This document shows positions 2-29,240 of a stretch of DNA of 64,000 nt, piece by piece; within the stretch, counting starts at the first letter, position 1, and every line of letters begins with the position of its first letter. The notes beneath the pieces are model-generated. The model was not told the origin of the DNA. It did no database searches and saw only the letters and a program-made list of their open reading frames with translations. Source of the stretch: Elusimicrobiota bacterium (GTDB lineage Bacteria; Elusimicrobiota; Elusimicrobia; FEN-1173); contig JADKIY010000007.1 in NCBI GenBank assembly GCA_016722575.1, positions 5,276 through 69,275 of the forward strand, written 5' to 3'. The position numbers were made by a program, and so were the translations under genes.

Positions 2-775
2 AAACCGGACCCGGCTGCTCTGGAGTTCTCTGCACAGGTGGCTTGCCTTACTGCTTTGGCGGGGGCGATGCGTGCCAAGCTGAACCCCAACCCACCGGAT
101 ATTTCCAGCGTCATGGAAAAGATCAGCATGCTTTTGGACGATTCCATCACCGGGATGACAATCCGGGAGCAAGGGTCCCCACCGCTGGACCTTTCTAAGA
201 TAAATTTCAAGGCGCTTGCCCAACGATTTAATCGGTCAAAACACAAGAACACGGACCTGGAAGTTCTGAAGGCGCTAATCCGTGCCCAAATGGAGAAGCT
301 GATACGCTTGAATCGAACTCGGGCAAATTTTACCGAAAAGTTTGAAGAACTGATTGAGAGCTACAATTCCGGAAGTCGAAACATTGAACAGCTTTTTGAG
401 GAGTTATTTAAATTAAGCAATAGTCTGACTGAGGAAGAAGAACGTCACGTTAGGGAAAATCTTAGTGAGGAAGAACTTGCAATTTTTGACATTCTTACCC
501 GCCCTGCTCCCACGCTTAGCACCGCCGAGCGGGCCGAATTAAAGAAAGTCACGCGGGCCCTGTTGGAGTCCCTCAAGCGGCTTCTCGTCCTGGATTGGCG
601 TCAAAAACCCAGCGCTCGATCAAAAATAAAAGTAGCTATTGAGAGCGCTTTGGATTCTGGTTTGCCACGCGCATACCCTCCTGATCTTTATCGTAAGAAG
701 TGCGCCATCGTTTTCGAACATATCTGTGAAAGCTACCCGCAGCAGGGAACAAGCATCTATACCGTTGCTGCTTAA
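2..775 (+). CDS. hsdR: Type I restriction enzyme R subunit (HsdR), C-terminal fragment; the 5' end lies outside the window
   Basis: Frame 2 is open from nt 2. The translation (NRTRANFTEKFEELIESYNSGS, LSEEELAIFDILTRP, LDWRQK, LPRAYPPDLY) matches the HsdR C-terminal DUF3387 region as I remember it. GC is lower than in the rest of the window. Confidence 0.8.
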   Translation, partial: KPDPAALEFSAQVACLTALAGAMRAKLNPNPPDISSVMEKISMLLDDSITGMTIREQGSPPLDLSKINFKALAQRFNRSKHKNTDLEVLKALIRAQMEKLIRLNRTRANFTEKFEELIESYNSGSRNIEQLFEELFKLSNSLTEEEERHVRENLSEEELAIFDILTRPAPTLSTAERAELKKVTRALLESLKRLLVLDWRQKPSARSKIKVAIESALDSGLPRAYPPDLYRKKCAIVFEHICESYPQQGTSIYTVAA

Positions 776-823
776 CCCCTTCGACTTGACTGTGTGTAAT
801 GCAAGATGCCACACTACATCCAG

Positions 824-979
824 ATGGGCCGAACAAGCCGGAACCCCCGGGTAAAAGCGGTACAAATCCGCATGACGGAAGAGGAAGTCAAGACCTTACG
901 GGATCTTGCCAAAAATGACCGGCGCAGCATTTCCAATTTTGTGCGCTGGCTGATTGAAAAAGAGGCAAGGAAAACGTAG
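824..979 (+). CDS. Ribbon-helix-helix (CopG/Arc-like) small DNA-binding protein, 51 aa
   Basis: Hand-translated because it is below the ORF-track size cutoff: ATG 824 to TAG 977-979 gives MGRTSRNPRVKAVQIRMTEEEVKTLRDLAKNDRRSISNFVRWLIEKEARKT. It has the typical RHH pattern of a beta-strand (VQIRM) followed by two helices. Confidence 0.6.
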   Translation: MGRTSRNPRVKAVQIRMTEEEVKTLRDLAKNDRRSISNFVRWLIEKEARKT

Positions 980-1821
980 TGGATTTTTTTATATTTATAC
1001 GTGGTGCTATATGCACTACGTAATGAGAAGGAGTCCTCAAAATCTGTGTTTAAAACGGCATACGGCTTGACGAACATTGTCGAAACGCAAAACCGGCGGA
1101 CCCGACCGCCACGTTCCACGTGTCGGCCCGGTTCCGCCAAGAAATTCAAAACCGCGCGCGCCTGGACCGGGAGGGCGAGGGCAAGACCTTCAGGGCTTGG
1201 CCTTCTCCAGCTAACGGAGCAGGCCGCCCAGCGGGGGCGGGTGAAACGGAGCGCAGGGGCGGCGGCGTTCTAGGCCGACGCGGCGGAGCGACCCGGTTTG
1301 GGGGGGGGTGTCGAATCAGGCGGAGCGGCGACCGTCCTATCCCTCGGGTGACCAAGCGAGCCGGGCGGCGGCGGGGGTTCTCCTGCCGACGCGCGGCGAG
1401 CGCCCCGGGGTGGAACGATTAACCGAAGTGCCCGGCGCAGGGGTTTTCCAGGGAGGTCGAATCAACCGGAGCGGAGACTTCTTTCTTTTCCAGCCCCAGG
1501 CTTACGGGTTTCCAGGCTCGGGTTTTAATGGGACAGCGCGGCGATGACAGAGCGACGCGCCATCACCGCACGCCGTTGTCCCAGCGTTGCGCCGCGCGGG
1601 GAGAGTTCCGCCCGCGATAGCGGTCGACGGTCAAAGGGAATGGTCGAATGACGGAAAAGAAACGGAGCGGGGAGAAAAGGAGGGCCCTTCGGCCGACGAT
1701 GTGTTGGCTGAATCGGCAGACAAGGCCCCACAATCCGGGTCCTGCCCGCAAGGTAGGGCGCGGCTTCCTGCGCCGCGCCAGGGCCAAGCCTTGGGGTGGC
1801 CCCCAAGGCCAGCGGGGCCGC

Positions 1822-1870
1822 AATCGTGGTCGCAATCACACCGAGGGTTCAATCCCTCCCCTTGGGTTCC
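1822..1870 (+). pseudogene. Degenerate copy of the 3' half of tRNA-Ser
   Basis: AATCGTGGTCGCAATCACACCGAGGGTTCAATCCCTCCCCTTGGGTTCC aligns by eye to the anticodon-stem, variable-arm and T-arm part of the intact tRNA-Ser at 4076-4165, in the opposite orientation. It lacks a matching 5' half of proper length. Confidence 0.45.
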
Positions 1871-1967
1871 GGCAGGTAATAGTCCCCGGTCAGGCGGTAG
1901 TTTTCCCAGTATTCGTGCGCAATATTGGGGAACGTCAGTGGAACAATGGTTGGACCCGTGTCGGTTT

Positions 1968-2318
1968 TTCCGCCATTTGCTGAAATCACAAACTGTGGCA
2001 AAAGAGCCCAACGGATCCCCTCCGCTGGGCTTTTTTGTTTTGACCGAATTCTGTCCCAAACCGTCCGAGCCGGGTCGTCCCACTCCCAAATTTCCAACCA
2101 AAGCGGTGGAATTCGTCTGATCGAACGCGCTCCGCGCGACGGGGCGGGAGTCGCTCCGAATGTCGCTAACGTCGTCGGAAGAAACACCGCCATTTGCGCC
2201 CGGGGTCCGTCCGCTTTTGCCGCCCGAGAAGGAACCGAAGGCGTAGTCCACGCGGACGCTCCTTTTGGAATAGTGAATCCGCCGAATCCCCCGCCGCACC
2301 GCATACACTTTTTCTATC
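1968..2318. repeat. Inverted repeat, left arm (IR-L)
   Basis: Its reverse complement matches 3726-4083 at roughly 93-95% by eye, with one 9-nt indel and one 1-nt indel. It starts with TTCCGCCA (the tRNA 3' end), contains a hairpin plus T6 (2006-2036), and carries a minus-strand copy of the recombinase C-terminus (GIEKVYAVRRGIRRIHYSKRSVRVDYAFGSF). Confidence 0.85.
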
Positions 2319-2467
2319 CCAACACCGCGCGCAACCCCAGGGAGGTGGCCCACTCCCGTCACCCTCGCCCCCACGGGGCAAGGGTCCAATGGTTCCCCAC
2401 TCCGACTCGCCCCGCCGGGGCAAGCCATGAAAATCAAACTGGGGAAAAATATCGGCCCGAAATTTCC

Positions 2468-2488
2468 TACAATGCAACAAAATAGGAG
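2468..2488 (+). promoter_or_regulatory. Putative -10 (TACAAT, 2468-2473) and Shine-Dalgarno (AGGAGG, 2483-2488) of the recombinase gene
   Basis: AGGAGG lies 8 nt before ATG 2497 and TACAAT lies 24 nt upstream of that ATG. No clear -35 box was found. Confidence 0.3.
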
Positions 2489-2496
2489 GTGTTCAT

Positions 2497-4097
2497 ATGT
2501 ATAGTATTGCCCCGGAACCTTCTGTCATTTCCTCCGTCACCAAGTGCGCTATCTACACCCGCGTTTCGACGGATTTACAGGCGGAAGTTGTGTTTAACTC
2601 CTGCGAAGCCCAGGAGGACCGCATCCGTTCTTTCATCGCCAGCCAAGCCGGTTTCGAAGTGGTTAAAGTTTATTCCGATCCCGGCTACAGCGGAGCAAAC
2701 ACGGAGCGTCCTGGGCTTCGGCAAATGGTCGACGACATTCGGGTTGGGCTCATCAAAATGGTGATCTCCTATAAAATCGACCGCCTGACCCGCTCGCCCA
2801 AAGATTTCTACGACCTCATTGAACTTTTTGAAGCCCACGGGGCATCCTTTATTTCCGTCACGGAACGCTTTGACACGTCGACGCCGTCGGGCCGACTTTT
2901 GCGCAATATCATGCTGACCTTTGCTCAGTTCGAACGCGAGCTGATTTCCGAGCGCGTTCGTGACAAGTTGATCCAGCGGGTTAAGCGCGGTCTCCATGGG
3001 GTTGGTTCGCCGCCCTTTGGTTATGTGAAGAATGAGAAGGGTGTCCTGGTTTTTGATTCTCCGCGCGACGCGCACGTGGGGCTGATTTTTGAAACTTATC
3101 TCAAGACTCGCTCGATCCGCGCCATTCTCAAAACCCTTCGGGGAAAAGGAATCCTTTCCCGAAAAGGGAAACCTTTTTGCGATTCGGCCATTTGGAACCT
3201 GTTAAGGAACCAGGTTTACACGGGCAAGATTGTCCACCGGGGACCACTTATCCCGGTCAACATGAGCCCATCGTTAGCCCGGAGCTGTTTAACGATGTCC
3301 AACGCTTGATGGCCGAATCCCCTCGTCAGACGGCCAATCCCGATAACCACTTGCCCTTCGCCGGGATTGTCCGCTGCCAGGAGTGTGGAAGCGCCATGAG
3401 CGTCGCGTTCACCAACAAACAGAACAAAGGGGGGAAGAAGAAATATTTTTACTACCGGTGCGGCAGCGTGGGGCACAAAGGCAAAGACGCTTGCCGCACC
3501 AAACAGATCGGTGCGGATCGTTTGCACGACATGGTCTATAAAAACCTGATCCGCCTTTCGGTTGATGGGGAAAACCTGAAAAATCTCGTGTTTTCGCTGA
3601 AAAATCAAACCCGTGGAGAGTCTGGAGAGGGATTTGAACCGTTACAAGATTTACAACGTTTGACGCCCCAAAACCTTCAAAAAGACCTTACGGCATATAT
3701 AAAAACATGTGCGCGCAAAACCGGGATTGAAAAAGTGTATGCGGTGCGGCGGGGGATTCGGCGGATTCACTATTCCAAAAGGAGCGTCCGCGTGGACTAC
3801 GCCTTCGGTTCCTTCCCAGGTGGCAAAAGCGGACGGGACACGTCCCCAATGGGCGCAAATGGCGGTGTTTCTTCCGACGACGTTAGCGAATTTCGGAGCG
3901 ACTCCCACCCCGTCGCGCGGAGCGCGTTCGATCAGACCAATTCCACCCCTTTGGTTGGGAATTTGGGAGTGGGACGACCCGGCTCGGACGGTTTGGGACA
4001 GAATTCGATCAAAACAAAAAAGCCCAGCGGAGGGAATCCGTTGGGCTCTTTTGCCACAGTTTGTGATTTCACAAATGGCGGAAGGGGAGGGATTTGA
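2497..4097 (+). CDS. Large serine recombinase, interrupted by one frameshift in a G-run at 3239-3242; C-terminal limit uncertain
   Basis: The N-terminus has the resolvase catalytic core (AIYTRVSTD, SYKIDRLTRS, FAQFERELISERV). After the shift the sequence continues TTYPGQHEPIVSPELFNDVQ, then a zinc ribbon (CQECGS...YYRCG). Adding one G restores ...KIVHRGTTYPGQHEP.... The open frame runs through IR-R into the tRNA. Confidence 0.8.
3624..3650 (-). other. tRNA-Ser T-arm-like fragment inside the recombinase coding region
   Basis: GGAGAGGGATTTGAACCGTTACAAGAT compared with the genuine GGGGAGGGATTTGAACCCTCGAGGAT at 4084-4109 (about 22/27 identical by eye, same orientation). Confidence 0.3.
3726..4083. 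repeat. Inverted repeat, right arm (IR-R)
   Basis: It is the reverse complement of 1968-2318. It includes the recombinase C-terminal codons, the terminator hairpin at 4022-4046, and the last 8 nt of tRNA-Ser. Confidence 0.85.
4011..4052. terminator. Bidirectional rho-independent terminator between the recombinase and tRNA-Ser
   Basis: A 10-bp stem GCCCAGCGGA/TCCGTTGGGC (one G-U pair) with loop GGGAA is flanked by an A-rich run upstream and a T-rich run (TCTTTT) downstream. Confidence 0.6.
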
Positions 4098-4165
4098 ACC
4101 CTCGAGGATCTTGCGACCCTACACGATTTCCAGTCGTGCCGATTCAGCCGCTCTCGCACCCTTCC
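4076..4165 (-). tRNA. tRNA-Ser (anticodon GGA), class II with a long variable arm and encoded CCA
   Basis: Hand-folded: acceptor GGAAGGG/CCCTTCC, anticodon arm CACGA-CTGGAAA-TCGTG, T-arm GAGGG-TTCAAAT-CCCTC, discriminator G, then CCA. Confidence 0.9.
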
Positions 4166-4166
4166 A

Positions 4167-4220
4167 AAAGGAAAAAAAGATCAATGAAGTGGTGCGATAG
4201 CGGCGAGCCGCTCAACGCGC
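4167..4220. repeat. Direct repeat copy 1 (about 53 bp), immediately upstream of the tRNA-Ser 5' end
   Basis: AAAGGAAAAAAAGATCAATGAAGTGGTGCGATAGCGGCGAGCCGCTCAACGCGC recurs at 4357-4409 with about 5 differences. Confidence 0.8.
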
Positions 4221-4356
4221 CCGGCGCTACGTGGAGCGGAGGCCCCCGCTGTAAGTCGGCGGTCCGAAAGACCGCCGAAGGCCACCGCGCACCCTTCCAT
4301 CGGGAATGCGGGCCCTCTGGGCCCGCCGATGGTCCCAAGGCTCTGCTCTTGGGGCC

Positions 4357-4409
4357 AAAGGAAAAAAGATCAATGAAGTGGTGCGATAGCGGCAAACCGC
4401 TTGACGCGC
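4357..4409. repeat. Direct repeat copy 2, 45 nt upstream of dinB
   Basis: Near-identical to 4167-4220. The 12-nt tRNA 5' end string CGCACCCTTCCA is also duplicated (4155-4166 and 4289-4300). Confidence 0.8.
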
Positions 4410-5726: not shown

Positions 5727-6248
5727 TTGCGCCGACGAACGTCCAAAGGTTTCACGTTAATTGAACTGATGCTCGTGGTGGCCATCATCGGCCTCCTCAC
5801 GGCCATCGCCCTGCCCAAATTCGCCGGCCTTATCCAAAAGGCCCGCGACGCGGCCGCGAGGGGAGGGCTCGGAACTCTTCGTGCCTCGCTTCGGATTTAC
5901 ATATTGGACAACGATGGGAGGTATCCTTGGACCTATGGGGAATTGGCGCCAAAATATTTAGATAAATGGCCTTCCATCAATCTTACCCACCATGACGGAT
6001 GGTCGCGTGGGCTCGGCGATGGGCCCTTTCCTTGTTGTGCAATGGTCGCGCTTTTTCAGCCGTCGACAATGGAGGATGCTTTGGTTCAAGCCCACGTGAC
6101 GGAACTCCACCCCTTCTGGCCAGCGCCATGGGGCAACTACCAATTTGTCGCATTACAGGACCCGACAAGGACTTTCAATGTGGATGCGGCTTTTACGGTC
6201 CTTTGCACCCATACGGACGCCCGGGGAGTTCTTTGGTCGGAATATTGA
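5727..6248 (+). CDS. Type IV pilin-like protein (prepilin N-terminal cleavage/methylation domain), paralogue 1
   Basis: TTG start with leader MRRRTSKG, then [25 protein letters not shown]-terminal motif CTHTDARGVLWSEY is shared with the paralogues at 6436, 24086 and 36589. Confidence 0.8.
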   Translation: MRRRTSKGFTLIELMLVVAIIGLLTAIALPKFAGLIQKARDAAARGGLGTLRASLRIYILDNDGRYPWTYGELAPKYLDKWPSINLTHHDGWSRGLGDGPFPCCAMVALFQPSTMEDALVQAHVTELHPFWPAPWGNYQFVALQDPTRTFNVDAAFTVLCTHTDARGVLWSEY

Positions 6249-6264
6249 GCGGAAATGGCCCGCC

Positions 6265-6415
6265 GGAACTCCAGGGGAAATACGTGGACTTGGATAAAAT
6301 CCATTTTCGTTCCCCCGGCTACATCCACACGCCTTCCCTCACTCGGCCCGGGGGCGCCACCATCGGCTTCGAAAGCTTTGGGCCCGCCCGGTTCTCGACC
6401 CCATCGTGCCGGATC
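6265..6415 (+). pseudogene. Promoterless, start-less partial copy of an internal segment of pilin paralogue 2
   Basis: 6265-6343 matches 6669-6747 with 1 mismatch. 6344-6415 matches 6748-6819 at about 80%. It lies after the stop of paralogue 1 and in a different frame. Confidence 0.7.
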
Positions 6416-6435
6416 CGAAGTGCCGGGTGGGGGTC

Positions 6436-6945
6436 ATGAAAAAAAATGGATTCACCCTGATCGAATTGATGCTGGTGGTGGCCATCATCGCCTTGCTGGC
6501 GGCCATCGCCCTCCCCCAATTCGCCAATCTGATCGAAAAATCCCGGGAAGCCAGCAACCGAGGCAACATGGGGACGGTCCGAAGCGCGCTGGAAATTTAT
6601 TACGTGGACAACGACGGCATTTATCCGCGCTACGCCATGGGCCCCACCTGCTGGGGAAACGGCACACTGGAACTCCAGGGGAAATACGTGGACTTGGATA
6701 AAATCCATTTTCGTTCCCCCGGCTACATCCACTCGCCTTCCCTCACTCTTCCCGGGACCGCCATCATCGGCTTCGGAAACTTCGGGCCCACCCCGGTTCT
6801 CGATCCCATCACGCCGGACCTTTGGTTGCCCCAGTACGACTATTACGCCACGGGCCCCATCGGCTGCGGGCCGGTCCCCCTGGCCCGGGTGGGTTTTTAT
6901 TGCACCCACACGGATTTGTCGGGACGGACCTGGAGCACGTGGTAA
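6436..6945 (+). CDS. Type IV pilin-like protein, paralogue 2
   Basis: ATG 6436 gives MKKNG, then [24 protein letters not shown]. It also has YYVDNDGIYP and the C-terminal motif CTHTDLSGRTWSTW. Confidence 0.85.
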   Translation: MKKNGFTLIELMLVVAIIALLAAIALPQFANLIEKSREASNRGNMGTVRSALEIYYVDNDGIYPRYAMGPTCWGNGTLELQGKYVDLDKIHFRSPGYIHSPSLTLPGTAIIGFGNFGPTPVLDPITPDLWLPQYDYYATGPIGCGPVPLARVGFYCTHTDLSGRTWSTW

Positions 6946-25059: not shown

Positions 25060-28000
25060 ATGCGAAAATTAACGTTGGGGACTCTGTTTCAAGTTCCTTC
25101 GGTGATTGTTAAACCCTTGAGTTTCCTAATTACGGCCGCCATGGCTTTCCCCCAAACCGCCTTCGCTCTTTCCGCGCTCGATCCCCGCGGGAACCGGGAA
25201 TCCCGGGGAAGCTCCGCCCAGACCATCTCGGAGCAAGAAGCCGACCAAAACAGGAGATTGGAAACCCTGCAGGGATCCACCGAGAACCAGGGGTTCCAAC
25301 TGCCGTCGGCCGAATCCCTGAACGCGATCCTTTCGGCGGAGGATATGAAGGACGGGCGGGTCGTGAATCCCGCGACGCCGGGTCAACAGGCCGCTTCGGA
25401 TTTAAACGACAGGGTTCGAGCCAACCGAAAACTGACCCCCCGGGGCCCCGCTCGTCTTTCGCCTCGAGGTCGTTCCCCTCAGCCTCCGGCGTCTCTCCCG
25501 CGCACCCAGGCAGGCCAGACGCAAACCACGATGCATTTTACGACGCCGATGGACGTGGGCATTCCCGGAGTCCTCGCGACCGGAAAGTCCGAAGTGTCCA
25601 CCCGGTCGACGGGGTCCGGCGGGGTCCAAGTGGAGGACGCGCGGGCCACGATCGATATTACGGATGGGACAAAAGCCACCCAGGTCCGGCAACGGAGAAT
25701 CCAACCGGACGGTTCCTGGACCGAGACTTCCGTTTTAACTCTTTCGGAAGGAACGAAGCTGGAAAGCGTGACGCGGATGGCGGGGGGCCGTGGGACGACG
25801 TCGTCAATGTTGACGAAGGCGGACGGGACGGTCGTTCAAACGGAATCGGTGTTGGACGCGGCGGGGCGAGTGACGCAAAGCCGGTCGACCGGACCGGAGG
25901 GAACGACGCTTCGAACGGACTACACGTATGACGCCAACGGACGGTTGACGGGTTTTAAGGAGGAAACGCGGAAGGAAACGCGGACGCAAACGCGATTCGA
26001 CCGGCCGGCGGACCTGGGGATTCCGGGGAAGCTCGTGAACGAGACGACGCGGGTGAGCCGGGAGAAGACGGTCGACGGGGTGAAGGCGATCCAGACCGAC
26101 GACGTATAAGTTCGCGGACGGGACGACGGGGACGGGGCGGTCGGAAGAGGTGGTGGAAAGGACGGAACGTCGACCCGAAACGACGTGATAACGATGTCCG
26201 ATGGGGCGCGGCTGGAAAGCGTGACGCGGATGGCGGGGGGTCGCGGGACCGGGACGTCGGTGTTGACGAAGGCGGACGGGACGGTGATCCGGACGGTGGT
26301 GGAGTTGGACGCGGCGGGACGCCTTCAGCGGAGCGAATCGGCCGGACCGGAGGAACGACGCTTCGAACGGACTACACGTATGACGCCAACGGACGGTTGA
26401 CGGGTTTTAAGGAGGAAACGCGGAAGGAAACGCGGACGCAAACGCGATTCGACCGGCCGGCGGACCTTGGGATTCCGGGGAAGCTCGTGAACGAGACGAC
26501 GCGGGTGAGCCGGGAGAAGACGGTCGACGGGGTGAAGGCGATCCAGACCGACACGACGTATAAGTTCGCGGACGGGACGACGGGGACGGGGCGGTCGGAA
26601 GAGGTGGTGGAAAAGGACGGAACGTCGACCCGAAACGACGTGATAACGATGTCCGATGGGGCGCGGCTGGAAAGCGTGACGCGGATGGCGGGGGGTCGCG
26701 GGACCGGGACGTCGGTGTTGACGAAGGCGGACGGGACGGTGATCCGGACGGTGGTGGAGTTGGACGCGGCGGGACGCCTTCAGCGGAGCGAAGTCGACCG
26801 GACCGGAGGGAACGACGCTTCGAACGGACTACACGTATGACGCCAACGGACGGTTGACGGGTTTTAAGGAGGAGACGCGGAAGAAACGCGGACGCAAACG
26901 CGATTCGACCGGCCGGCGGACCTGGGGATTCCGGGGAAGCTGGTGATCGAAATCAAGCGAGTGACGCAGGAGACGACGGTCGACGGGGTGAAGGCGATCC
27001 GCACGACGATGACGTACAAGTTTTCGGACGGATCAACGGGCGAGGGACGGTCGGAAGAGGTGGTGGAAAAGGACGGAACGTCGACCCGAAACGACGTGAT
27101 AACGATGTCCGATGGGGCGCGGCTGGAAAGCGTGACGCGGATGGCGGGGGGTCGCGGGACCGGGACGTCGGTGTTGACGAAGGCGGACGGGACGGTGATC
27201 CGGACGGTGGTGGAGTTGGACGCGGCGGGACGCCTTCAGCGGAGCGAGTCGACCGGACCGGAGGAACGACGCTTCGAACGGACTAACGTATGACGCCAAC
27301 GGACGGTTGACGGGTTTTAAGGAGGAAACGCGGAAGGAAACGCGGACGCAAACGCGATTCGACCGGCCGGCGGACCTGGGGATTCCGGGGAAGCTCGTGA
27401 ACGAGACGACGCGGGTGAGCCGGGAGAAGACGGTCGACGGGGTGAAGGCGATCCAGACCGACACGACGTATAAGTTCGCGGACGGGACGACGGGGACGGG
27501 GCGGTCGGAAGAGGTGGTGGAAAGGACGGAACGTCGACCCGAAACGACGTGATAACGATGTCCGATGGGGCGCGGCTGGAAAGCGTGACGCGGATGGCGG
27601 GGGGTCGCGGGACCGGGACGTCGGTGTTGACGAAGGCGGACGGGACGGTGATCCGGACGGTGGTGGAGTTGGACGCGGCGGGACGCCTTCAGCGGAGCGA
27701 GTCGACCGGACCGGAGGGAACGACGCTTCGAACGGACTACACGTATGACGCCAACGGACGGTTGACGGGTTTTAAGGAGGAGACGCGGAAGGAAACGCGG
27801 ACGCAAACGCGATTCGACCGGCCGGCGGACCTGGGGATTCCGGGAAGCTGGTGATCGAAATCAAGCGAGTGACGCAGGAGACGACGGTCGACGGGGTGAA
27901 GGCGATCCGCACGACGATGACGGCAAGTTTTCGGACGGATCAACGGGCGAGGGACGGTCGGAAGAGGTGGTGGAAAGGACGGAACGTCGACCCGAAACGA

Positions 28001-29240
28001 CGTGATAACGATGTCCGATGGGGCGCGGCTGGAAAGCGTGACGCGGATGGCGGGGGGTCGCGGGACCGGGACGTCGGTGTTGACGAAGGCGGACGGGACG
28101 GTGATCCGGACGGTGGTGGAGTTGGACGCGGCGGGACGCCTTCAGCGGAGCGAATCGGCCGGACCGGAGGGAACGACGCTTCGAACGGACTACACGTATG
28201 ACGCCAACGGACGGTTGACGGGTTTTAAGGAGGAAACGCGGAAGGAAACGCGGACGCAAACGCGATTCGACCGGCCGGCGGACCTTGGGATTCCGGGGAA
28301 GCTCGTGAACGAGACGACGCGGGTGAGCCGGGAGAAGACGGTCGACGGGGTGAAGGCGATCCAGACCGACACGACGTATAAGTTCGCGGACGGGACGACG
28401 GGGACGGGGCGGTCGGAAGAGGTGGTGGAAAGGACGGAACGTCGACCCGAAACGACGTGATAACGATGTCCGATGGGGCGCGGCTGGAAAGCGTGACGCG
28501 GATGGCGGGGGTCGCGGGACCGGGACGTCGGTGTTGACGAAGGCGGACGGGACGGTGATCCGGACGGTGGTGGAGTTGGACGCGGCGGGACGCCTTCAGC
28601 GGAGCGAGTCGACCGGACCGGAGGAACGACGCTTCGAACGGACTACACGTATGACGCCAACGGACGGTTGACGGGTTTTAAGGAGGAGACGCGGAAGGAA
28701 ACGCGGACGCAAACGCGATTCGACCGGCCGGCGGACCTGGGGATTCCGGGGAAGCTGGTGATCGAAATCAAGCGAGTGACGCAGGAGACGACGGTCGACG
28801 GGGTGAAGGCGATCCGCACGACGATGACGTACAAGTTTTCGGACGGATCAACGGGCGAGGGACGGTCGGAAGAAGTGGTGCAGCGGAATGGATCGTCGGT
28901 CCGAAACGACCGGATCGCGTTGGCGGACGGGACGAAGTTGGAAAGTGTGAGGCGGATGGGTTCCCGGGGCGGAACGGTGTCGTCGGTGTTGACGACGGCG
29001 AACGGAACAATCTTCCGGACGAATACGCAGTTGGACAGGAAGGGGCGGATTGTCCGGAGCGAGTCGACGTGGCCGAAGGGGACGACGCTTCAAACGGACT
29101 ACACGTACGACACCGCCGGGCGGTTGACCGGGTATAAATATATTACGAAGGAGGGGAAGAACAATGAGACGCGGGGGGTGATGCGATTCAATCCGCCGGT
29201 CCAAATCTACGATTTCGCCGGGAGGATAACGGGTATCTGA
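25060..29240 (+). pseudogene. Large secreted YD/RHS-like tandem-repeat protein, reading frame broken at least 8 times (true pseudogene or repeat-assembly error)
   Basis: Signal-like N-terminus MRKLTLGTLFQVPSVIVKPLSFLITAAMAFPQTAFA. The pieces 25024-26109, 26185-26400, 26397-26840, 26943-27293, 27307-27552, 27549-27854, 28002-28460 and 28668-29240 all translate to the same ~152-aa unit, which contains RTDYTYDANGRLTGF. Confidence 0.7.
25730..29240 (+). repeat. Tandem array of about 7.7 units of 453-456 bp
   Basis: The marker string GTGATAACGATGTCCGATGG recurs at about 26185, 26640, 27096, 27549, 28002 and 28457. The flanking units (25730-26184 and 28912-29240) are more divergent. Confidence 0.9.

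Follow-up and report, generated by a model that had tools for sequence, protein, structure and literature searches.

A putative self-splitting island in a tRNA-Ser gene of Elusimicrobiota, with an inverted spare copy of its serine integrase gene end

The integrase gene, its two arms and the tRNA-Ser(GGA) target

The 64,000-nucleotide (nt) stretch of DNA analysed here, termed the window, comes from an Elusimicrobiota bacterium (assembly GCA_016722575.1, contig JADKIY010000007.1, positions 5,276 to 69,275) and carries near its left end an intact gene for tRNA-Ser(GGA). The gene of a large serine recombinase runs into the 3' end of this tRNA gene from the opposite strand, and the 3' end of the recombinase gene recurs in inverted orientation just upstream of the gene itself. 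These two copies are called the right and left arms; P and P' denote the halves of the attachment site attP of the element, attL and attR the hybrid sites left by integration, and an asterisk a stop codon. In window coordinates, the locus comprises:

1686-1872, plus strand: element X, a structured segment that is conserved and resembles tRNA-Ser, with parts like a D-arm and a T-arm
1852-1967, minus strand: P' half-site, then the C-terminal tail KTDTGPTIVPLTFPNIAHEYWENYRLTGDYYLPEPKGRD*, which is conserved and has its stop codon at 1849-1851; an attP-like site together with the left arm
1968-2333, minus strand: left arm, which repeats the integrase 3' end in inverted orientation and without a promoter, with hairpin 2005-2030 and P half-site
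2334-2496, plus strand: unique spacer with the integrase Shine-Dalgarno sequence AGGAGG (2484-2489) and the presumed promoter
2497-4097, plus strand: large serine recombinase, identified by its Pfam domains; runs through the attachment site into the tRNA gene and ends in NGG-RGGI*
3710-4083, plus strand: right arm, with the integrase 3' end, low-complexity linker, terminator hairpin 4022-4046, P half-site and crossover region, read as attR
3723-3815, plus strand: conserved beta-hairpin GIEKVY..RVDYAF, within the right arm and part of the integrase 3' end
4076-4165, minus strand: tRNA-Ser(GGA), intact (ARAGORN; Rfam tRNA, 50.8 bits)

The recombinase is about 530 amino acids (aa) long and matches the Pfam domains PF00239 Resolvase (E 6.4e-40, residues 18-165), PF07508 Recombinase (3e-11) and PF13408 Zn_ribbon_recom (5e-13). 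The serine of ..YTRVSTD.. and four zinc-ribbon cysteines are invariant among 16 relatives, the AlphaFold model of the homolog P0001 has the helices of a coiled-coil insertion at 338-418, and Foldseek returned full-length matches to Bxb1 (9iu2), SprA (9dxh), PhiC31 and A118 (4kis) with E-values of 1e-19 to 1e-14. By these sequence and model comparisons, the enzyme is a bona fide large serine integrase, with catalysis of attP x attB recombination presumed. Homologs 45-88% identical, mostly from metagenome-assembled genomes of Elusimicrobia, align across the whole protein. The frame in the window is not intact, as a 1-nt deletion in the G-run at 3239-3242 divides it into open reading frames (ORFs) at 2497-3309 and 3177-4097. 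An earlier note on this DNA, made from the letters alone, had placed the promoter, Shine-Dalgarno sequence and catalytic domain of the recombinase between the arms; the catalytic domain and a strong AGGAGG ahead of the ATG are indeed found there, but a search of 2334-2496 for a sigma-70-like promoter on the plus strand gave none.

The arms emerged from an inverted-repeat search as two collinear pairs (1981-2201/3851-4071, 221 nt at 96%, and 2188-2333/3710-3855, 146 nt at 88%), which BLAST merges into a single match of 1968-2320 to 4083-3723 with 93.9% identity over 362 columns. This match between 1968-2333 and 3710-4083 far exceeds chance. The earlier note had described an inverted repeat of about 93-95% identity with a 9-nt and a 1-nt indel and had envisaged a formal alignment with a substitution count; MAFFT recovers both indels together with 21 mismatches, and the proportions of synonymous and nonsynonymous differences (pS 0.069, pN 0.051) indicate near-neutral substitution between the arms of this copy. 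In place of the last 60 or so recombinase codons once assigned to each arm, the arms hold the conserved GIEKVY..RVDYAF segment and about 90 linker codons. The hairpin and T-run noted earlier in each arm are present (4022-4046 and 2005-2030; folding z about -5), and on the tRNA strand the hairpin is followed by the U-run UUUUUUGUUUUG and is therefore the intrinsic terminator of the tRNA. The terminator of the convergent tRNA gene thus sits inside the integrase reading frame (4015-4053 in the right arm, 1998-2036 in the left), and the linker of about 90 aa, predicted to be disordered, appears to be constrained as DNA, by terminator and half-site, rather than as protein.

The ends of both arms coincide with the tRNA gene's 3' end (TGGCGGAA at 4076-4083 and TTCCGCCA at 1968-1975). 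As described before, the right arm enters the intact tRNA gene, and it stops 8 nt inside it, where arm homology ends at 4083. The island thus contributes the last 8 nt of tRNA-Ser(GGA) (TGGCGGAA on the plus strand), and these make up the B' side of attR. The ORFs of homologs likewise finish in '..NGG..GI*' or in GFEP/GIEP-type peptides, which are the antisense translation of a tRNA 3' end. Farther inside the gene, the integrase codons for GEGFEP (3623-3642) match the T-arm region of the tRNA at 17 of 20 nt. An older tRNA remnant was considered as their source and set aside, since GxEP is kept across the family at the predicted tip of the coiled coil and is probably a protein motif.

The left arm lacks a start codon of its own, and a 1-nt insertion near 1979 breaks its frame into the DNA beyond. 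Read outward, the 95 nt outside this arm encode NGG-KTDTGPTIVPLTFPNIAHEYWENYRLTGDYYLPEPKGRD*, and the homologs P0001 and P0010 go on past NGG into a matching tail, ..FPNV.H.YW..Y.LTG.YYL.; the same tail follows the integrase in P0001, P0010 and the related loci L167 and L168, with synonymous changes. Most differences between its DNA versions in the window, L001 and L002 fall on third codon positions, and the tail is therefore a selected peptide. Because the in-frame tail adjoins the left arm, this arm and its flank represent the unrecombined gene end (P, crossover, P', tail), and because the integrase frame joins the tRNA at the right arm, that arm represents the recombined end (P, crossover, tRNA). 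On sequence grounds, the left arm is an internal, inverted and promoterless copy of attP just upstream of the presumed integrase promoter. An independent small gene in the left arm was also considered and rejected, as no start codon is conserved and the frame opens a few codons past the inner arm edge. AlphaFold models the core of P0001 with confidence, leaves the linker (445-531) disordered and gives the tail the form of a short strand, with a predicted local distance difference test score of about 72; a strand modelled after a disordered linker fits a tethered docking motif.

Next to the tail lies element X, a segment of about 180 nt with a multi-hairpin insert of about 110 nt between its D-arm-like and T-arm-like parts. 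Further copies occur in L001 (2504-2690 and 5513-5700) and L167 (9186-9374), and the window copy is 94% identical to L001 2508-2671, though the two integrases are only about 67% identical. The consensus fold of the four copies contains 4 compensatory pairs, and no Rfam family matched element X at E<=1. The degenerate tRNA-Ser half that the earlier note saw at 1822-1870 is real (1828-1861 matches 4085-4118 at 74%, and 1842-1863 matches 4104-4082 at 96%) and forms part of this larger conserved element, whose resemblance to the tRNA starts exactly at the crossover position. Taken together, these features make it highly probable that the region is the tRNA-proximal end of an island in tRNA-Ser(GGA) whose integrase carries its attachment site inside its own reading frame.

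Comparison with the closest relatives suggests that this copy is decayed. L167 occupies the same tRNA-Ser(GGA) beside a syntenic yraN-rnhB-rplS-trmD cluster, its DNA is 78-80% identical to the window, and it has the same tail and element X with arms of 266 nt that are 100% identical; L168, on a 2.5-Mb Elusimicrobia contig, adjoins tRNA-Ser(CGA) and has arms of 358 nt at 100%. The window was also compared with Logan unitigs (k=31) from four activated-sludge runs (X1-X4), which are too short to span the arms. In X1-X3, the arm corresponds to a single unitig of 359-361 nt, with depths relative to the interior of 18.4 vs 8.5, 6 vs 3.3 and 47 vs 18.9, and the interior unitig covers exactly 2291-3752. 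Runs X2 and X3 have an extra G behind 3238 that gives an intact integrase frame, while X1 and X3 are without the extra base at 1979, so that the left arm is in frame with the tail. The window copy, with a frameshift in the integrase, another in the left arm and arms that are 6% diverged, hence looks decayed, unless both 1-nt changes are assembly errors.

Another reading would take the repeats for terminal inverted repeats of a minimal, recombinase-only transposon (1968-4083) at the tRNA end, a form of which the earlier note had proposed. Such an element would be a compact 2.1-kb unit, and the same 8 nt do end both arms. An empty site would then be without the last 8 nt of its tRNA, direct attL copies lie further out in relatives (see below), and what lies outside the left arm belongs to the element: the integrase frame runs on into the tail there, element X is next to it, and this flank is common to L001 and L167. 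A fold-back assembly artefact, already thought unlikely in the earlier note, is opposed by the differences between the arms and by the recurrence of the repeat in independent assemblies and, at about twice the interior depth, in independent unitigs. A transposon or artefact is accordingly the least credible account of the locus, to be entertained only at very long odds.

The inverted copy across related islands

A survey by tblastn, ARAGORN and self-BLAST covered 160 related loci from genome and metagenome collections, of which 54 were evaluable, with at least 41% identity and both the integrase 3' end and its flanks present. These 54 belong to Elusimicrobia, Patescibacteria, Omnitrophota, Planctomycetes, Nitrospirae and other phyla. 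An inverted copy of the integrase 3' end lies upstream of the gene in 45 of them, with a median length of 149 nt (range 35-488), a median identity of 97% and a median gap to the gene of 212 nt. The integrase meets an opposite-strand tRNA gene that is intact in 34 of the 54 and a remnant in 7. The intact targets are tRNA-Asn, Lys, Gln, Ala, Ser, Glu, Ile, Thr, Leu and Val, to which loci outside the 54, with too short an upstream flank, add tRNA-Gly (L093) and the transfer-messenger RNA gene (L142, 1455-1871). Of 30 loci with both the right arm and the tRNA complete, 22 have an arm that stops 3-11 nt within the tRNA; the element thus supplies the last 3-11 nt of the tRNA, and also its terminator in the window and in L019, where this was looked at.

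Among more distant proteobacterial relatives (33-40% identity), no layout of tRNA plus inverted copy was found: in L031 and L042, the match reaches the gene 3' end with neither an adjacent tRNA nor an inverted copy, L032 adjoins tRNA-Asn with the inverted copy absent, and the 3' end was unplaceable for most others. As judged from this comparison, the inverted copy is a family-wide extra feature and not an accident of one locus. Arm identity falls to 75-82% in the older relatives L008, L019 and L027, which have degenerate tails or tRNA remnants; near-perfect identity between the arms of elements that are 20-55% apart from one another shows continuing homogenisation, and dead copies have lost this identity. 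Public contigs very often end inside the left arm or 46-49 nt past it, as at the contig starts of L009, L013, L095, L109, L113, L118, L120, L135, L143 and L159 and in L010, L011, L025 and L061; short-read assembly beside tRNA genes breaks off at the arms and at the duplicated P' segment.

This recurrence bears on the proposal that the left arm is a decaying, non-functional relic of a second head-to-head or duplicated element, another of the ideas in the earlier note. The window copy by itself would suit such a relic, given its near-neutral divergence between the arms and the frame-breaking 1-nt changes in both integrase and left arm. The layout nonetheless returns in 45 of 54 relatives, which span many phyla and at least 12 tRNA identities, and arm identity there reaches 100% between elements that are themselves 20-55% different; protein identities of 41-48% exclude one recent shared ancestor, and a remnant of a second catalytic domain is never present. 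We therefore regard a relic as very improbable and the head-to-head idea as contradicted by the survey.

The DNA outside the arms is equally consistent across the family. A shared tail motif continues the integrase frame outside every left arm, in the form ..FPNI.H.YW..Y..TG.YY.. in Elusimicrobia (FPNIAHEYW.. in the window) and ..QTFxIILPN(L/T)IH(K/G)(S/C)KKxxL* in Patescibacteria and Omnitrophota. In the left arms of relatives, the frame is always open and a conserved start codon is absent. Motif-bearing tails have a pS of 0.75, near saturation, against a pN of 0.12, a ratio biased by the choice of the sample by motif; the synonymous spread among these tails is real despite that sampling. About 22 of 120 homologs are called fused to the tail, and most others end in tRNA-antisense peptides.

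A cis-regulatory role for the left arm can be weighed against these data. The arm might act as a terminator that insulates the integrase from cargo transcription and as a decoy or looping integrase site for autoregulation. The plus-strand hairpin 2005-2030, followed by TTTTTTGTTTTG, makes a good terminator for rightward transcription, and the arm always lies directly upstream of the integrase, at the median gap given above. For these purposes about 50 nt would suffice, not 130-490 nt of near-identical open frame with a protein-selected tail, and we rate a purely regulatory arm as improbable.

Nine loci with enough upstream sequence (L008, L019, L087, L088, L091, L094, L096, L099 and L106) contain a second P' and tail in direct orientation 1-6 kb beyond the left arm, delimiting islands of 3.2-9 kb. 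These attL copies are preceded by unrelated sequence, which in L019 includes a different terminator hairpin and tRNA terminal nucleotides. The attL and left-arm copies of P' and tail, with about 100 nt more, form a second inverted pair that flanks the cargo, 177-302 nt long at 99-100% identity in 7 of the 9 islands and shorter or more diverged in two decayed ones. The integrated island therefore has the order B / P'-tail> cargo <tail-P' / P<fragment, promoter, integrase>P / B'(tRNA). The earlier note had taken the inverted geometry to stand in for the direct attL/attR repeats of a tRNA island; the inverted copy is instead additional to a normal attL/attR pair. Joining the island ends therefore yields a circle whose cargo and integrase arcs are parted by two inverted attP regions. 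L001, L004, L164 and L165, which have a tail on each arm and lack a tRNA, fit the circle form as double-tail loci; none of the contigs was shown to be circular. A single-stranded circle of the CTXphi type, whose two inverted sites would fold into one duplex attP, was rejected on two grounds: double-strand exchange by a serine enzyme would leave hairpin-capped chromosome ends, and the island order is that of an ordinary double-stranded circle integrated through one site.

The circle raises the main rival to the explanation developed below, namely that the second inverted site serves the excised form. The circle would bear two inverted attP (P + P', 330-650 bp) between its cargo and integrase arcs, flipping or integration via either site would be the selected function, and the chromosomal repeat would be a leftover of one-site integration. 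The second inverted pair around the cargo in the mapped islands and the existence of double-tail loci without a tRNA speak for such a role. On the other side, the smallest islands have no replication genes, their cargo being 1-2 kb of unknown ORFs, and integration through either site is expected, yet the core lies beside the tRNA in 41 of the 54 loci and is tail-fused in 2; double-tail loci moreover have less similar arms (82-93%), and attP x attP recombination is no known activity of large serine integrases. A function mainly in the excised circle is unlikely on this balance, though less so than any other rival.

In the window, the island is seen only in part, and its cargo (38-979) runs off the window edge:

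38-775, plus strand: C-terminal part of a type I restriction R subunit (Pfam T1RH-like_C, 4e-34)
806-979, plus strand: ribbon-helix-helix (RHH) protein, with weak RHH matches under the Pfam cut-offs

Among the cargo genes of relatives are restriction-modification, Hachiman and OLD-type ones, besides unknowns. The GC content left of the tRNA is 0.49-0.57 (0.49 over 1-1000), save for 0.63 at about 1000-1970, and is 0.63 for the whole window; to the right of the tRNA lies core genome with dinB, pilins, yraN, rnhB, rplS and trmD. Low GC and a restriction fragment on the left and core genome on the right mean that the island therefore extends leftward, beyond the window. The stretch between the RHH gene and element X (980-1690) is GC-rich with no convincing ORF, and shares with L001 1868-2224 two patches, each some 50 nt long and about 90% identical, which follow in the same order.

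Proposed loss and regain of the integrase tail

The best explanation for the locus as a whole, and one that we consider fairly probable, is a self-splitting tRNA island with an inverted spare end and a re-arming inversion. In its free form, the element encodes a catalytic core, a disordered linker (with the tRNA terminator hairpin and P), the crossover, P' and the conserved tail of 25-40 aa in one frame. Integration joins the gene to the tRNA at attR and exchanges the tail for a few tRNA-antisense codons, and the tail ends up in an attL of direct orientation at the opposite end of the island. For the window island, this attL is expected beyond the left window edge as a direct-orientation AAACCGACACGGGTCC.. 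with the FPNIAHEYW tail. The integrase would be disarmed by the loss of its tail. A reciprocal exchange between the arms, RecA-mediated anywhere within them or site-specific at the crossover, would then flip a core of 1.4 kb (2334-2496 and 2497-3709 being the segment that an arm-to-arm inversion would turn around) and re-fuse the integrase in frame with the spare tail. The tRNA, attL and attR would stay intact, and the presumed promoter would travel inside the flipped segment; an inverted rather than a direct spare copy would avoid deletion of the gene.

A layout of the kind predicted for the flipped state does exist. The integrase is fused to the tail in L120, L095 and L134, and L120 has the full flipped arrangement integrase>P-P'-tail>cargo<tail-P'-B; its identity to tRNA-fused relatives is about 90%, with no homology beyond the crossover. 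Of the three ideas in the earlier note, which were an invertible segment that swaps recombinase C-termini, a unit bounded by terminal inverted repeats and a head-to-head relic, only the first stays viable, and it becomes sharper because arm exchange would replace the tRNA-derived NGG-RGGI* by the conserved, protein-selected tail. That integration disarms the integrase, and that a rare, reversible arm inversion re-arms it for excision, is a plausible but tentative proposal drawn from the comparative sequence data. On this rescue reading, directionality would be set by the geometry of the DNA and not only by a separate directionality factor. A flip-flop akin to that of the yeast 2-micron plasmid might, in addition, arise in the excised circle from this double inverted site.

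Several observations weigh against this self-splitting and re-arming scheme. Among the 54 evaluable loci, 41 are tRNA-fused and 2 tail-fused, and flipping, if it occurs, is therefore rare or transient. The k=31 unitigs, which cannot span the arms, gave no read-level evidence of inversion, and a second copy of P' and tail (attL) was not found within the window, past whose start the island continues. The dyad symmetry of the putative attP is not significant overall (0.28 vs 0.26 +/- 0.016); the one signal is a local AGTT(C/T)G motif about 18 nt to each side of its centre in the Patescibacteria-type elements. The tail-less integrase may be fully active, and arm identity could arise from gene conversion without crossover. 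Finally, canonical large serine integrases are not known to recombine attP with attR, and a site-specific route to inversion would be unorthodox.

Other repeats in the window lie outside the island. Directly 5' of tRNA-Ser, 4168-4409 contains two tandem copies spaced 189 nt apart (89% over 53 nt), and the contig of the sludge strain of run X4 omits exactly 189 nt (4172 to 4362); the copy number of this repeat therefore varies. Two adjacent paralogous genes with a prepilin-type N-methylation motif (5727-6945) have internal direct repeats in common, of 139 nt at 90% and 107 nt at 78%. A 453-nt unit repeated 7.4 times in tandem (25758-29133; 91% matches) gives rise to a strong purine skew, with a GC skew of 0.30 and an AT skew of 0.32, and codes for repeated YD/RHS-like peptide units (..TDYTYDANGRLTG..) in a frame broken into several ORFs.

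Relation to known systems and significance

The enzyme shares with the large serine integrases Bxb1, PhiC31, A118/LI, TP901-1 and SPbeta SprA its resolvase, recombinase and zinc-ribbon parts with a coiled-coil insertion, and integration likewise leaves hybrid attL and attR sites. It differs from them in that its target is a tRNA 3' end, which the element rebuilds, in an attP placed in the integrase frame after a long disordered linker that holds the tRNA terminator, in a conserved tail coded beyond the crossover, and in the second, inverted copy of attP. Transposons with terminal inverted repeats, of the IS607 or Tn4451/Tn5397 type, would have host DNA directly outside the repeats; here, the left flank consists of tail and element X.

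Invertible DNA offers closer geometric parallels. As in Hin, Gin/Cin and the R64 shufflon, inversion would swap a C-terminal coding end, and as in hin, the recombinase would lie inside the invertible segment. Those systems rely on small invertases with a C-terminal helix-turn-helix, or on the tyrosine recombinase Rci, need an enhancer and short crossover sites, and change a surface or tail-fibre protein. In the present case, it is the integrase itself (recombinase and zinc-ribbon domains, about 530 aa) that would be varied, and the arms span 130-490 nt (about 365 nt in the window). The yeast 2-micron plasmid carries FLP/FRT in 599-bp inverted repeats, its recombinase is of the tyrosine type, and its flipping serves copy-number amplification of the replicon. 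The inferred circle resembles it in geometry only, with a recombinase gene and two long, site-bearing inverted repeats that part two invertible arcs; the enzyme is a serine recombinase, and no replication genes were seen in small islands. In the mycobacteriophages BPs and Charlie, which have integration-dependent immunity, attP lies in a coding region and integration by a tyrosine recombinase alters the C-terminus of the repressor and, with it, the way the repressor behaves. Integration thus changes a protein C-terminus in both cases, but in these phages the repressor is affected and there is no inverted spare copy.

A functional parallel lies in the 'suicidal' archaeal integrases of SSV1, pTN3 and pT26-2, in which the att site also sits in the integrase gene, integration into a tRNA gene partitions that gene, and the element faces the same exit paradox. 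These enzymes are tyrosine recombinases (Phage_integr_3) known from archaea only, and their excision has been ascribed to an incoming related element (review, PMC8371274). Whereas their gene is cut into two large halves with no spare, only a tail of 25-40 aa is lost here and an inverted spare is built in; as a bacterial serine recombinase, the present enzyme is likened to them in its working and is not a member of their family. More tentatively than the tail exchange itself, the islands can be viewed as a possible bacterial counterpart of these integrases with a rescue of their own, in which a required tail is lost, the island is locked and a rare inversion re-arms it.

According to the Islander study of 2014 (PMC4383910), no integrases of the serine family were known to use tRNA genes as targets. 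A large serine recombinase was since listed in 27 of 937 tycheposons and related cryptic integrative elements, with no such anatomy (preprint, 10.1101/2020.12.28.424599), and a search of the literature for this architecture found no description of it. A widespread family of tRNA-inserting islands with this architecture has thus apparently gone undescribed. For genome annotation, near-identical arms of 130-490 nt mean that integrase genes are called with spurious tRNA-antisense endings.

If the proposed scheme is correct, tRNA genes would join the targets that large serine integrases are known to use, and this in many phyla that have been little studied, where the islands appear to move defence systems (restriction-modification, Hachiman and OLD). 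Self-splitting integration would then not be confined to archaeal tyrosine recombinases, and the inverted spare would give a testable answer to the question of how such elements escape. A C-terminus swapped by the enzyme's own reaction, together with an inverted spare, would constitute a new principle of directionality and, as serine integrases are major tools of genome engineering, a ready-made one-shot or resettable switch.

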